DNA of 64,000 nt from Eledone cirrhosa (GCA_964016885.1 OZ024747.1:77872001-77936000); one strand, 5' to 3'; numbered from the stretch's first letter, positions 4,879 to 64,000 are shown. Made by a program: numbers and translations. The notes: generated by a model from the sequence alone, not told the origin.

Positions 4879-6080
4879 CTCAGTCCAATGATGATAGTGA
4901 TGGTGGTGGTATTGGTGGTTGTGGTGATGAGGATTATGGCTTGGAACCTACTTCCTTCTATAGTAACAGTTGGTAATAGTGGTATGATGATGATGGTGCT
5001 GGTGGTGATTGTGCAATGATGGTGATACTGTTGTTGAAGTCCCTAACAAAGTATGATACAAAGAAGGTGGAAAGGTTTCTATAAATTACTACAAATTATA
5101 TTTTTGTTTGTTTGTTTTTTCTTACACCTACCCCCTCCTCCTCCTTGACCCCCCCCCCCCCCCCTGTATTCTTTGTAGTTTCTTATCTGTCATGTACCAC
5201 AAGCTATCAACTGCCAAACTTCCAAATACTTTACTCTCATATCATTGGACTGTAAATCTTTCTTAAGTAGGACCTAACTACTCCCCACACCACCACCACC
5301 ACCACACTAATGGTTGGTTGTTTAATTTGTTTATTGTTGTTGTTTTACTTGTTTATAATGGACAATGAACATCTGCATTGCCAACACCTCCACTACCACC
5401 TCCACCATGGCAACTACCTTCATTGCCAACACCACTACAACCACCACTACCACCACCACCACCACTATCACCACTACCACCACCACCACTATCACCACCT
5501 CCACCACCACTATCATCACCACCACATACAGGCAGACAAATATGTCAATATATTGATAGACAGATAGATGGATAGTTAAGTTGCTATAAGTATATTTAAT
5601 GCAATGGACATTAAAAAAAGCTAATTATAAATAATTATGTGGTGAGGAAAAGATAATATTAATCAATGATTAATATTATTTTAATTATTCTGCCAAATAT
5701 GGGAGCCAGCTGTGGACAAGTGGCAGCTTGTAACAGCAGCACCATTCTTGTAGACTGTCAGAAAGTTGGTCGGCTTTGATAGTTGCCAGACCTGCTACTG
5801 TCACATTTGACAATGATTGATACCTAGATAGATAGTTTGATAGATAGATAGGTAGGTAGATAGATAGGTAGGTAATTAGGTAGATAGATAGATAGATATG
5901 TTTCTTTTATTTGCCACTAGGGCATCAAAAGTGGGACAAGTACAAAGGGGGGAGTTTACACAAAAAGGCGTCCTCAATAAGGAGGAGGCAATAACAAAAT
6001 ATAAAAATAAAATAAGATATAACAAAAAATAAAATTTAGATAGATAGATAGATAAATAGGTAGGTAGGTAGATAGATAAA

Positions 6081-8310
6081 TTTCTTTATTAGCCACAAGG
6101 GCACAAAAGAAGGGGACAAATACAAATGGGGAATTTACATACAGGTATATGAAAATAAAACTATTAATACAATAACAAATAACAATTGAAATCCACAATA
6201 GGAGGGAGGTGTTACATAGGGGTTGTACACACCCCAAAAAAATGTACAACCCTCATCTCCAGGAGCACCAAGAGTGAGTACTCCCTTCCTCTCTTCCTCT
6301 TTTTCCTCAACCTACAGGCTTATATAGAGAGAAGGCCCAACAACTCGGGCCATCTTTGCCACATTCACCCACCTTTTATAAAATTTGCTGGGGTACAGCA
6401 CCTTTCTCTCCATCCTGATTCTTCTTCCAAAATAATATTTGAAAAAACGAATCAGTTGCTCGCCGGAGAGAAAGGTGTCTGACCTCAGTCCTTTTAACCT
6501 CGTCCACCATATAACCTCTTTCACCATAGCCATAACACATAGGAAAACCGCCTCTCCCTCGTTTTTGAACATGGACTCGGTGGTCAACTGGATTGGTCCC
6601 ACCCGCGACAATAGTCTTCTACATAGCCCCACAGGTTGGTAACGCCCGGGCAGTGTACAAATGCGTGTGCGACGGTTTCCTGCGATGTGTCTGTAGAGCT
6701 TGTCTTGAACTAGTAGAGCTGCTCGGTAGCACTGCCAGGCCAGGGACTTTTGGAAGTTGTCCATTGGTCCCGGGCGGAAGGTCCTACCGAACAGACTGGC
6801 CAGTTCGTCCTCCTCTACACCTAGAGTTTCTCCGAGCGTGTCGTCGCACTTGCTGCGGACCAACCCTCTATAGATTGTCGAAGTGGAGTCTTCACTGATC
6901 GCCAGGTCCGTTTGCCAGAGGACTATGAGTGCCTGAGCACATTGGATATGCCAGTCGGCCATTTTCCTCAGTCTTTGCTTGACCCAGGACTGCAACTCGG
7001 TCAGTGAGACGAGTCGTGGGAAGGCTCGCCTCACGAACGGGGCCCACAGCGGTTGTCTGGTGAGGAATACGTGGAGGTGCCGCAGCCTGAGCACGTGTTT
7101 GCGCATCGTCAGCCACGGCCTCCCCAGCCCTCTGTTTGAAGGGTGTTGGCAGCAGATGGATCTTCTCACCAAAGGAGCCCGTTTCTTCCAAAGGAATTGG
7201 AAGAGCACACGCTTCATTTTGGTGAGCGTTTTGGCTGGACAAAGCACAACGGTCAAGCGGTAGTAGATGACGGACGCTATAAAAGTGTTCGCCACCTCCG
7301 CTCGACCTTTCAAGGATAGTTTGCACTCGGCCCACTTCTGTGTGAGCGCAAACACCTTGGCTGTCACCTCGTTCCAGTTCTTCTCCACCTGGAGGTCAGG
7401 ACCAAACCAGACCCCGAGCAGCTTTACTGGTCCTTCCGTCCAGCATCCGACGACGTCATCGGAAGGCATCGGTTTGCCTCTGCACATTCCGAGTTGCAAA
7501 CCGACGGATTTGTTCCAGTTCAGCTTCACTCCTGGGAACCTTTCGTATTCCTCCAGTAAGGTGCCGATCTCCCCGATTTGCGAGGTGCTCGACACCATTA
7601 CTGTCACGTCGTCGGCGTAGGCCGACGCCGCTTTTCGCAGTCCCGGTTCCAAACGGATGCCCTGCAATAGCTCCGACTTCCGCAGTAGTGGCTCGAGAGT
7701 CAGTACGTACAGAAGGGAGGAGAGAGGGCATCCCTGTCGGATGAATCGCGTGATATGGAACGGCTCCGAGAGGTAGCCATTCACCTTGACTCTTGAGCAG
7801 TTGTTGCTGTTGTGCATTGCATCAATCCAGCCCCTTAACACGGATCCGAAGCCTGCCGCCTCGAGCACCGCATCCAGGTAACGATGGTCAACCCTATCGA
7901 AAGCCTTAGACTGATCCAAGTTGATCAGGGCCCCACCGAAGCCAGATTTACACCCTACCCTCTCTATGATGTATCACATGAGGTGGAGGTTGTCGTGTAT
8001 GGACCTGGTCGGGATTGCGCATGTCTGCGCTTCTCTGACCAGGTTTTCGACGGCAAGCGCCAGCCTCTTTGCCAACACCTTGGCCAAAATCTGTAACTCT
8101 GTGTTGAGCAGAGTTATAGGCCAGAAGTTGCCTATGTCATCCCCCTTGTTCTCGTCCTTCCTGACTAATGTGATTACGCCCTTGGTCTCAGAACTGGGAA
8201 TTCTCCCGTTCTGCTGCCAGTTGCATTAGACCGCTTCCAGGAGACCAGAGAACAAGTCCGGCATTGCTGCGTAAAATTTGTAGGAGATTTGTGTTTGCCG
8301 CATTGGCTCA
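6081..8310 (-). mobile_element. 5'-truncated Tx1/L1-clade LINE (RT to 3' end), (TATC)n-tailed subfamily
   Basis: ORF 6312-7919 with DQSKAFD, RQGCPLS and AYADD; homologous to ORF2 at 59389; frameshifted; (TAGA)n on both flanks. Confidence 0.92.
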
Positions 8311-62300: not shown

Positions 62301-62664
62301 CTTCCAGAAATCTCTGGCCTGGCAGTGCTACCGAGGAGCCTTGCTAGTTCGGGATAAACTCTACAGTCATGGAGGTGCCGTCAGCCGGGCATGTCCGAGA
62401 TGCGCGCAGGGCGACGAAACCGCCCTGCACGCACTCGTCCAGTGTCCGAAAATTGCTGACTTGTGGGTTTATGTCGAACACCTGCTGTCGCGTTTAGGAC
62501 GGATCCGGCTATCATCTGAGTCCATCGTGAGGATTGCCCCGCCCTCCTCCTTTAGCCGGGAAGGGCAGGCAGTTTTTATCTGTCTGGTGGCCATGGCGAA
62601 AGAGATAGTATGGTGGACACGTTTGAAAGGGCTGAAGACGAGCACTTACCTCTTCGGTGATTGA
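59389..62664 (+). CDS. LINE ORF2 (APE endonuclease, RT, C-terminal Cys motif); a late frameshift displaces the last ~45 aa, which continue to 62800
   Basis: SINARGL, ISET, VYAP, GDWN, YLDR, TDHK, RQGCPLS, AYADD, CPRC..ET..H....C. Confidence 0.95.
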   Translation: MTSLRIGSINARGLGSSWKQGHLLNDLRSLNIDVVAISETRISEARAFAPIFGGYDVYASPSRPGSGGGVAVLFRRGLHLAIRAIFLEPEGKLVVLDVTSGDGQAFRLVAVYAPTGAGRPDFFRRLETFLGTSRSLVLVGDWNGILDARWDCVGLADRGGGCKSLTNLLRHFELSDRYRLDFPNVPMWTWTNRIWSSRSYLDRVFCREIDRSSIGCPQFKIVSYTDHKFVICVLDLDRLHRRGPGYWKLNASLPARKAYRDRISELVKRALTGAIVNNKWWFALKRAIRIESIRFSKALAIEKNRAEGELVRKLDEALSKGIATDVLAAKLALDQFFNAKHEGCVVRARVRALRHEGTKAVQWARVAEARRGNKATIRSLVDHDGRMLLDPGQMCEAFQRHFAQLFGGSGGPGRGMDFSVYLDGLPRLSATEAKCCEKPITAAEVREAMTGCTRGKSPGLDSLPYELYVQMPDLFGGLLADVYCNWQQNGRIPSSVSRGAVALLRKDPNKGDNIDNFRPITLLNTEFKILAKVLAKRLALVVGGLVGEAQTCAIPDRSIHDNLHLMRYIVERVAREPGTGGSLINLDQSKAFDRVNHRYLAAVLRAAGFGPVFRGWIAAMHSDICSVVRVNGHLSEPFNIMRSVRQGCPLSSLLYVLTLEPLLHKLETLRGVPRELGCGRSVSAYADDVTVVVSNAKHIEAIGTTLREYEAVTGAMINQEKSVGLQLGTWRGRSMPSNSVVGRWTDGPVKLLGVWFGPDLQTDKNWDEVTSRVASLTQKWEERKLYLKGRAEVDNAYIASVICFRLTVVPCPKPRLTALERLLFRFLWKGRAPMVRRSICCQHPLGGGLGMPWLMMRRHALSLRHLHLFLDGDQVWSPFSRHVFPQLVSLTELQSWVKRRPRGSAWRLECLQALTALDQSGNVIGGNSTSAFYRGLVEGKSDDVLGETLGVDENQLANLFGRTFGPGPMDNFQKSLAWQCYRGALLVRDKLYSHGGAVSRACPRCAQGDETALHALVQCPKIADLWVYVEHLLSRLGRIRLSSESIVRIAPPSSFSREGQAVFICLVAMAKEIVWWTRLKGLKTSTYLFGD

Positions 62665-64000
62665 CTTTTTCAAATTTCATTTGAAAAGGAAAATCAGAGT
62701 AGAGAGGGAAGTGTTCTCTTCCCAGCATTTTGTTGAAAGATGGGTGAGAGAAGCAAGAATGGCCCGAGTGAATGGGCTTACTCTGAGTATATATCTGTAA
62801 ATTAAAGGTGGAAAACTGGGAGAGGGCACTTGCCTTGGTGGTCAGGGTCATTGTGGCCTTTTACTGGGCTTTCTCCACAAATGTCCCTCCGAAGTCTCCC
62901 CCCTATTCGGGAATTTTTCATTGTTATTTTTTGTTACATCCTCTGTTTTTGTTTTTTACACGCAGAAATGCCCATTTGTACCGTCCTGTATTGTCCTGCA
63001 CTGTCCTTAATGTCTACTTTATGTAAACCCTTGTGGTTAATAAAGAAAACATTATTATTATTATTATTATTATTATTATTATTATTATTATTATTATTAT
63101 TATTATTATAAACGTTGTGGATTGGCAGTATCGGTAGAGTATCCAACGGACAATATTCTGTTGCGGCATATAGTTACGGCTCTTTACTGTCCTGGTGCCA
63201 AATGTAGACATAATAATAATAATTGTTTCTACTTTTGGCACAAAGCCAGCAATTATCCCAGTGTATTAATAATAATATTTATTATTATTATCATTAATTT
63301 CTTTATTTGCCACAAAGACAGAAAGGTGATTAGGATGACACATGGACAAGATAAAAAAAACACCGATAGGGGCCCATGTGGTCATGTAAAAATAAAATAA
63401 AATAAAAATATAACAACGCAGAAAATGTCCCTCGATTACATGTTTCCTTTCCATTGTTTAAATGATGTACATGCTTTCTGATGGAAACCCAATTAGGTTA
63501 CCAAACCAGTTAAAGAGATTTATCTTTATCTTTTTTCAATTTACAGGGAAATACATATATTTGACATATTTACATATATATATACCAAATGTGTGAATCT
63601 ATATACATATCTACGCAGTCTCAGTTACCGCTATTCTGTCTATATACAGATATTTCATGATCACACACACACACACACACACACACACACACACACACAC
63701 ACACACACACACACACACACACACACACATATATATATATATATATATATACATATATATATATATATATATATATATATATATATATATATATATATAT
63801 ATATATATATACGTATATATATTCCAATTGTACCTTGGTATTTTGCAGTGATGCTTAGTAACCCAAGCATGAACCTCTTTGTTAGCTATCTCCAATCCCC
63901 ATATTTTTTTTTATGATTGTTCATGTCACTAAGTTACTGTGGAGCTTATACTCAACACGGTGTTTGTTGAGCTCTGATGATTCGTGCCTAAAGGTGAGGA

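Follow-up and report, generated by a model that had tools for sequence, protein, structure and literature searches.

Several young families of retrotransposons without long terminal repeats (non-LTR elements) sit, in the genome of the octopus Eledone cirrhosa (3.0 Gb), within microsatellites of a particular unit and mostly on one strand, and we consider it quite likely that they get there by nicking the repeat and priming reverse transcription from it. The families were recognized in a 64,000-nucleotide stretch (OZ024747.1:77872001-77936000), referred to in its entirety as the window, by tandem-repeat, open reading frame (ORF), Pfam, and self-comparison scans together with direct reading of the sequence. 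Three are R4/Dong-like (R4a, R4b, and R4c), with a fourth (R4d) outside the window, two are Tx1-like (Tx1a and Tx1b), and the RTE-like ones include RTEg and the short, non-autonomous RTEd; Penelope-like remnants are found as well. A first-pass annotation of the window had proposed that such elements share out the simple repeats, one repeat per family, and regenerate their own targets, which could explain an extreme microsatellite load.

Family-specific repeats at the 5' junctions

The queries for the genome search were the families' 3' ends and the Penelope-like remnant. Per search, the best 40 of 333-4,725 candidates were scored and 30 loci taken; 120 loci were extended to 5-7.4 kb, and alignments to natural full-length copies were chained to locate the 5' junction. 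A head was scored for the family's unit, on the element's strand, as a run of at least 10 bp within 30 bases upstream of the 5' end, with 20,000 random 30-mers as background. Excluded before the final count were 7 window copies and 5 near-duplicate loci, as well as 9 copies that ran past the end of the extended loci and 19 in which the 5' part was rearranged or interrupted. Because the 5' flank lies outside the query and the truncation points are scattered (in the chained alignments of the extended loci the breakpoints spread along the elements), a repeat found there cannot belong to the element itself.

Upstream of truncated copies, CATA is seen in 27 of 28 cases for R4a and 23 of 24 for R4b, and TAA in 23 of 27 for R4c, the full-length heads of these families carrying the same units in 7/7, 5/7, and 4/4. 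Truncated Tx1a copies have TATC upstream in 18/34 at 10 bp or more and in 27/34 at 7 bp (full-length heads, 1/2), while full-length Tx1b heads have TTA without exception (26/26). For RTEd, truncated heads follow TATG in 5 of 11 and TA in 3 more (8/11 pooled), and full-length heads follow one or the other in 14 of 15; for RTEg, TA precedes 13/20 truncated and 2/3 full-length heads. The corresponding frequencies in random 30-mers are 0.57% for CATA, 0.18% for TAA, 0.22% for TATC, 0.59% for TATG, and 7.4% for TA. Binomial p values, computed on the counts before duplicates and the other excluded copies were removed, run from 1e-64 to 2e-3. The presence of the family-specific repeat at 5' junctions genome-wide, far beyond chance, is confirmed, and the tabulation that the first-pass annotation had put forward as the check on its reading bears out this part of it, with enrichment over a background of 0.16-0.59% across tri- and tetramer units (7.4% for TA).

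The strand is specific, too. The opposite-strand unit was found at none of the heads of R4a (0/35), R4b (0/31), R4c (0/31), Tx1a (0/36), or Tx1b (0/33), and at one of 26 RTEd heads. Of 30 Penelope-like remnants, 23 have (TA)n to their left, 23 to their right, and 17 on both sides. A 184-bp unit resembling a short interspersed element (SINE) served as control; only 8 of its 60 copies have TAA of at least 10 bp at the tail. In a random sample of the genome (40 stretches of 10 kb, 400 kb in all), the majority of copies that happened to be present fit the pattern, with exceptions in R4c, Tx1b, and RTEg. A repeat at the tail need not be a target: RTEg ends in (GAT)n in 31/31 copies and has (GAT)n at 0/23 resolved heads, showing that its tail is not its target.

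In the window the same pairings are seen, and here the first-pass annotation was accurate: R4a and R4b (its R4-like families 1 and 2) lie in (CATA)n on the + strand, as they do genome-wide; the short RTE derivative lies in the same repeat in opposite orientation, (ATGT)n; both window copies of the third R4-like family, R4c, lie in (TAA)n; the two Tx1 subfamilies lie in (TATC)n (Tx1a, 5.8-10.0 kb) and (TTA)n (Tx1b); and (TA)n surrounds the Penelope-like remnants. The copies are as follows.

39647-43868 (+): R4a, full-length R4/Dong-like non-LTR element with reverse transcriptase (RT), CCHC knuckle, and restriction-like endonuclease (RLE); one in-frame stop at 41400-41402; bordered by (CATA)n on both sides, at 39502-39646 and 43868-44320
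44315-44461 (+): R4a, 5'-truncated copy of ~147 bp within (CATA)n
44478-45077 (-): RTEd, ~600-bp non-autonomous RTE-like derivative with a C-terminal C2H2 finger remnant; (ATGT)n on its own strand
45144-47705 (+): R4b, 5'-truncated R4/Dong-like element of R4a's clade; (CATA)n at both ends, degenerate on the 3' side
47909-48514 (-): RTEd, full-length copy; (ATGT)n on its own strand
48588-49060 (-): RTEd, copy with an internal deletion; (ATGT)n on its own strand
49103-49898 (+): older R4a-related fragments (73-80% identity), with CATA at the outer ends and a SINE-like piece between
56101-56529 (-): R4c, 5'-truncated copy within (TAA)n
56567-56989 (-): R4c, 5'-truncated copy within (TAA)n, head-to-head with Tx1b across a common tract at 56987-57032
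57033-63048 (+): Tx1b, full-length two-ORF Tx1-like element; ORF2 with apurinic/apyrimidinic endonuclease (APE), RT, and zinc finger; (TTA)n at both ends
5825-10035 (-): Tx1a, cluster of stacked copies, the largest at 6080-8310, in degenerate (TATC/CTAC)n
53357-54290 (-): Tx1 fragment with a (TTA)n tail, split by a GAT/GGT array and meeting a (CA)n array at its upstream end
20068-20312 (no strand): Penelope-like palindromic remnant with a hammerhead-like core, within (TA)n
32720-33502 (no strand): Penelope-like palindromic remnant (32768-32952) and a second hammerhead-like unit in duplicate (32965-33139 and 33278-33460), within (TA)n
16672-19240 (-): RTEg, RTE-like element with a PHD-like finger; (GAT)n tail
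25468-27285 (-): RTEg, truncated copy with its 5' end inside 83 bp of (TA)n and a tail of (GAT)n

The further claim that the repeat stands at both junctions, and is not just a 3' tail, holds strongly for R4a, R4b, and R4c, well for Tx1a, and for RTEd when (TA)n and (TATG)n are counted together; in Tx1b it is true of full-length heads only and fails for truncated copies.

Common tracts read from opposite strands

Each R4 and Tx1 family has one favored unit, and the target tracks the RT lineage in the tree described below. The exclusive partition, one repeat to one family, does not survive, as repeats are common to two to three families and RTEd uses two. On a single strand, (CATA)n is common to R4a and R4b; as a double-stranded (CATA/TATG)n tract it also hosts RTEd, which lies on the TATG strand and is found in (TA)n besides. 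The (TAA/TTA)n tract is common to R4c and R4d, on the same strand, and to Tx1b, on the TTA strand. Three families (RTEd, RTEg, and the Penelope-like remnants) are hosted by (TA)n. In the common tracts, the A-rich strand (CATA, TAA) is the one used by the RLE families, and the T-rich strand (TATG, TTA) the one used by the APE families.

R4d, known from L362:3738-4900 (-) and L401-L415, has a TAA tail and often stacks with R4c and Tx1b. It shows no DNA similarity to R4c, and TAA is found at 15/15 of its tails and, read by eye, at ~5/7 truncated heads. Its 3' end is a repeat that was at first read as a Tx1 5' end, an assignment that was rejected.

Because opposite strands of one tract are used, mixed stacks result, of R4c with R4d, Tx1b, and the SINE tail in one case and of R4a with R4b and RTEd in the other; the window blocks at 39.5-50 kb and 56-63 kb are typical. 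Beyond the tract, R4c heads adjoin a known element in 27 of 34 cases (R4c 14, R4d 7, Tx1b in opposite orientation 5, SINE 1), and in 21 of the 34 the head immediately follows an older copy of R4c or R4d in the same orientation. Opposite-strand RTEd adjoins R4a at 9/33 heads and 6/37 tails, and a Tx1 copy of the same orientation adjoins the Tx1b head in 12/37. RTEd and RTEg were each matched by fewer than 2% of 400 random 90-mers. The 3' flanks of L009, L012, and L014 hold at least two further RTEd-like short families ending in (CATA/TATG)n tracts.

Existing targets or repeats made at insertion

In the mechanism that we favor, target-primed reverse transcription would start from a nick placed on the complement of the element-strand repeat. 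Target-primed reverse transcription itself is established non-LTR biology. The site would be chosen by the endonuclease, possibly aided where the 3' end of the RNA pairs with the target over a few bases, and the flanks of earlier insertions would serve as later targets.

That the repeat precedes the element is most direct for Tx1. Seven Tx1a loci (L064, L066, L072, L077, L333, L335, and L336), picked by judgment from 16 listed non-periodic matches, have target duplications of 11-20 bp that start one base past the element end and extend into non-repeat bases; two Tx1b loci (L039 and L049) have duplications as well. Since these duplications include non-repeat bases, the Tx1 sites in question existed before insertion. 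They show, too, that Tx1a requires little beyond TATCT at the 3' junction. For other families the flanks themselves are informative: the 5' and 3' flanks of a copy are more alike than shuffled pairs for R4a (p 0.008), Tx1a (0.0008), Tx1b (0.027), RTEd (0.0002), and RTEg (0.001). The 3' flank of R4a has CATA in 37/37 copies and follows the local repeat variant after a few bases, as does that of RTEd; because the match to the local variant comes so soon, R4a and RTEd would add little tail. R4c has a short tail of its own.

A number of results weigh against targeting of existing repeats as a full account. Truncated Tx1b copies have TTA in just 2 of 7, all five Tx1b heads without (TTA)n being truncated copies, and the 10-bp threshold for TATC is reached in only about half of Tx1a copies. 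In the window, the Tx1 fragment at 53357-54290 (-) is a counter-example on the 5' side, the family repeat being missing upstream. The copies sampled are the top 30-40 matches to a 3' query and hence the youngest and closest. No unambiguous R4 target duplication was found, the matches being explainable by repeat periodicity. The flank-likeness test is non-significant for R4b (p 0.26) and R4c (p 0.34), and the RTEd value is inflated by a small number of duplicated loci and window copies that were included. Finally, no empty site was recovered for the one young R4a insertion followed (L006) in public contigs from four runs and at most two samples, where the listed contigs skip the junction repeats and none spans; direct evidence that the repeat existed beforehand is thus confined to the Tx1 duplications. 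Among the 24 loose ends listed for L006 (1,639 more were unlisted), four have interior breakpoints and are of CATA type; they were not counted, and the runs may derive from the assembly's own individual. A public run with another organism label holds many R4a-like contigs whose loose ends run into the matching CAT start.

A more ambitious extension of the targeting reading, tentative and in our estimation rather doubtful as a whole, is that these families form a self-feeding guild. RLE and APE lineages would split tracts by strand and not by unit (R4a and R4b against RTEd; R4c and R4d against Tx1b), flanks and duplications would provide landing sites for others, a read-through (UUA)n head on Tx1b RNA would favor full-length integration and rebuild the target, and R4a would be active with a new (CATA)n specificity. 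Resolved copies are 5'-complete in 26/33 cases for Tx1b vs 2/36 for Tx1a (and 7/35 for R4a), an excess for which pairing of such a (UUA)n head with the target would account.

The read-through head also enters into a competing and, in our view, improbable explanation, in which the 5' repeats are made at insertion, either by a jump of the RT to a repeat-bearing RNA or from a read-through RNA with a repeat head. It is most plausible for full-length Tx1b, given the contrast between the full-length and the truncated heads cited above and a full-length copy (L312) with a long head tract and no tail tract. The 5' tracts of R4a exceed the 3' tracts in 26 of 34 copies, the missing empty site is in its favor, and Dong co-transcripts do carry upstream TAA repeats, though they are cleaved at the element's own 5' end (PMC3774820). 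Truncated R4 copies, however, never reached the head of the RNA and yet carry the repeat, Tx1 duplications include non-repeat bases, and local repeat variants agree on the two sides of R4a, RTEd, Tx1a, and RTEg copies. Nor do the tracts appear longer than expected when element-free arrays are sampled with a bias for length: the mean of the two flanks added together, over the mean expected from such sampling, is 202/154 bp for R4a, 103/154 for R4b, 70/92 for R4c, 48/38 for Tx1a, and 57/92 for Tx1b, with no clear excess, and hence no clear net tract growth, in these five families.

The same figures bear on the model of the first-pass annotation taken as a whole (exclusive sharing-out, regeneration of targets, and retroelements as the cause of the microsatellite load), which we regard as less probable still. 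Regeneration stands in part, as Tx1 duplicates 11-20 bp and R4c so often stands behind earlier copies, and falls in part, as the summed flanks are close to the length-biased expectation. One favored unit per R4 and Tx1 family and the frequent same-orientation stacking speak for the model, as does the fact that strict microsatellite tracts (perfect, at least 16 bp) touch an element end in 11/17 cases for AAT, 6/15 for AGAT, and 5/20 for ACAT, compared with 2.9% of random points. These adjacency figures are lower bounds, since the element library is limited to families in or near the window and is incomplete. Against the model, repeats are common to two to three families, and among looser arrays, with a larger library, the matching family touches 11/161 for CATA, 21/81 for TAA, 6/30 for TATC, and 19/332 for TA.

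The load itself, moreover, is not extreme in the window, where perfect microsatellites of at least 16 bp make up 4.3% of the sequence, below the 6.3% of the random 400 kb. In the random sample AT (59.6%), AC (17.4%), and AG (6.7%) together constitute 84% of microsatellite bases, vs 8.2% for ACAT, AAT, and AGAT combined and 1.4% for ATC. Recognized element ends are touched by 2,191 of 25,158 microsatellite bases (8.7%), and by the dominant classes barely at all (AT 17/388, AC 3/113, and AG 0/40 tracts; 4%, 3%, and 0%), so that these families do not explain the load. Most bases of expanded motifs do not abut a recognized long interspersed element (LINE) in this sample, as LINE seeding would have them do. 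Net microsatellite gain, through target duplications and short tails, would be modest, with most AT, AC, and AG arising otherwise; octopus richness in (AT)n and (AC)n is left unexplained by targeting.

Unspecific insertion, with copies in microsatellites surviving selection or gaining slippage-born flanks later, is very hard to credit: microsatellites are already 6.3% of the genome sample and some truncated Tx1b and RTEg copies do sit in ordinary sequence, but the youngest family, R4a, already stands at 27/28, and neither selection nor slippage would single out, in each family, a particular unit and strand when the background is 0.2-0.6%.

The families, their neighbors, and their relatives

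Four natural R4a copies (L245, L251, L256, and L257) have a stop-free frame of 1174 codons, with a Pfam match to RVT_1; the closest solved structures are R2 proteins. R4a carries a CCHC knuckle and an RLE motif, and R4b, R4c, and R4d align there. R4/Dong elements have a single ORF with RT, CCHC, and RLE, the last with the motif RH[DN]..PD..E, and R4a resembles Dong in this layout. The R4 clade is not known to have the N-terminal zinc-finger and Myb DNA-binding motifs of R2 or NeSL; here, too, no C2H2 or CCHC pattern was found in the first 380 residues of R4a or the first 350 of 10 homologues, and none by Pfam. In an RT tree with an APE outgroup that included Tx1b and without a named R4/Dong reference, the RLE families form a fully supported clade of two sublineages, R4a and R4b with a protein of Argonauta on the one hand and R4c on the other. 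Among named sequences, the one closest to the R4a protein comes from Argonauta hians (53% identity). All 40 scored R4a copies are 100% identical over 307 bp; R4a is the youngest of the families and, with copies so nearly identical, probably still active.

The ORFs of Tx1b (57194-59353 and 59194-62664) match Exo_endo_phos, RVT_1, and zf-RVT in Pfam, and ORF2 is 60-62% identical between Tx1a and Tx1b. Among Tx1b loci (L301-L320 and L351-L360) at least two different 5' ends occur, and many copies have internal deletions. RTEd, which we take to be an RTE by resemblance, keeps the same 3' end from copy to copy while its 5' truncation varies, and the remnant of a C2H2 finger precedes its stop; a search of 400 loci turned up no autonomous partner. 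An initial reading of RTEd as a + strand partner of R4 was rejected, as the constant end and the truncations place it on the - strand. Many RTEg copies lie at ~19.8-23.8 Mb of sequence C25, and three of these (L206, L208, and L210) have one common 3' flank; the C25 copies are likely a larger amplified unit and not separate insertions.

Self-matches on both strands confirm the Penelope-like palindrome, the remnants of which are ~200 bp long. In Rfam only the second unit matches a hammerhead (HH9, 19.9 and 18.7 bits vs a threshold of 52), and the predicted fold of that unit is hammerhead-like; other Rfam matches are palindrome-driven microRNA hits below threshold. No linked RT or GIY-YIG frame was found in loci holding the remnant. 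A weak GIY-YIG-like fragment at L215:2598-2993 (+) (E 0.013), preceded by a cysteine-rich linker, lies 1 kb from a remnant with other repeats between, and may be what is left of a Penelope-like endonuclease.

Missing from the first-pass annotation are RTE families that carry a PHD-like finger, end in (GAT)n, and in many cases have (TA)n on the 5' side. A RabGAP-TBC domain gene, two exons of which match PF00566, hosts the elements in its introns or close to them. Other features of the window are these.

11599-11647, 14826-14938, 15978-16107, and 25046-25231 (+): exons of the RabGAP-TBC domain gene
12617-14338 (+): RTE2, a second RTE-like family; short (GAT)n tail, no repeat on the 5' side
19265-20041 (-): RTE2, truncated copy; (GAT)n tail, then (TA)n
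3008-3813, 16139-16314, 23072-23262, 24155-24350, 31513-31704, and 50650-50824: 184-bp SINE-like unit
4153-4885: 48-bp tandem array, 15 copies, 95% matches
37305-37636: 77-bp tandem array, 4.3 copies, 98% matches

The SINE makes up 3.4% of the random sample, and its short ATT-type tail sometimes reaches the (TTA)n tracts of Tx1b and R4c. The 48-bp array resembles a unit in the 3' part of RTE2 (14085-14188) and is possibly a satellite born from a LINE 3' untranslated region.

Dong, of the R4 lineage, has upstream TAA repeats (PMC3774820), and R4c and R4d sit in (TAA)n whose strand is that of the junction primer used for Dong of Bombyx mori in that study; R4a and R4b differ in forming a separate RT clade with (CATA)n as target, in a tree that holds no named Dong or R4 sequence. 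Dong-R4 elements are expanded and recently active in octopus (PMC8967140; PMC13282606), and expansion or activity in cephalopods is described for Dong-R4, L1-Tx1, RTE, and Penelope (PMC8967140; PMC13282606; PMC9115989; PMC10294476). The available text of these cephalopod reports names no insertion targets, and in that of PMC13282606 the word "target" does not occur. Kibi targets (TC)n, Koshi (TTC)n, and crocodilian Tx1 elements (TTCC)n or (TTTC)n, a family counting as target-specific when more than 20% of its flanks agree (PMC4494074), a level that both Tx1a (19/36 heads) and Tx1b (28/33) exceed. Like these elements, the Tx1 families here are APE-type and lie in microsatellites that are T-rich on the element strand; they differ in their units, TATC and (TTA)n, in the short TATCT motif that Tx1a needs at its 3' junction, and in the 5'-completeness of most Tx1b copies, again with no named Tx1, Kibi, or Koshi reference in the tree. 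Togen, in (TG)n, and some HERO families are further examples, and have been discussed in terms of safe multicopy targets (PMC4640811).

Among Penelope-like elements, Naiad and Neptune often prefer (TA)n and have inverted pseudo-LTR structures (PMC8557442). The remnants described here are similarly palindromic with (TA)n on each side in 23/30; Naiads are without hammerheads, whereas these remnants, ~200 bp only, have a hammerhead-like core below Rfam thresholds. Seeding of microsatellites by LINE tails is known for RTE in Lepidoptera (PMC2887409) and CR1-L3/Rex in snakes, where one LINE accounts for one expanded motif (PMC6050309), and a tail-dependent choice of site has been proposed for RTE (PMC6007223). 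RTEg, with (GAT)n at its tails and not at its heads, is of this kind, although the seeded motif, ATC, is a minor one here and what dominates is the targeting of tracts already present; RTEd differs in adding almost no tail and in sitting within (TATG)n or (TA)n.

Microsatellite targeting as such is already known, from Dong, Kibi/Koshi, and Naiad. What appears to be new are the targets for known clades, the coexistence of the families at high copy number, and the strand-opposed sharing of tracts. In our literature search we came across no description, for octopus, of CATA, TATC, or TTA as targets or of families sharing a tract from opposite strands, though Repbase or Dfam entries may already record these targets. 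To our knowledge, non-LTR elements with a specific target tend to be low in number and restricted to ribosomal DNA or other multicopy genes; the microsatellite specialists here number hundreds to thousands of search candidates per family. These families account for nested repeat stacks in introns, and caution is called for with octopus tri- and tetranucleotide markers, which often lie on mobile, multi-locus flanks. The intact R4-like elements, in two sister lineages with CATA vs TAA as target, offer material for the study of site choice by fingerless restriction-like endonucleases.

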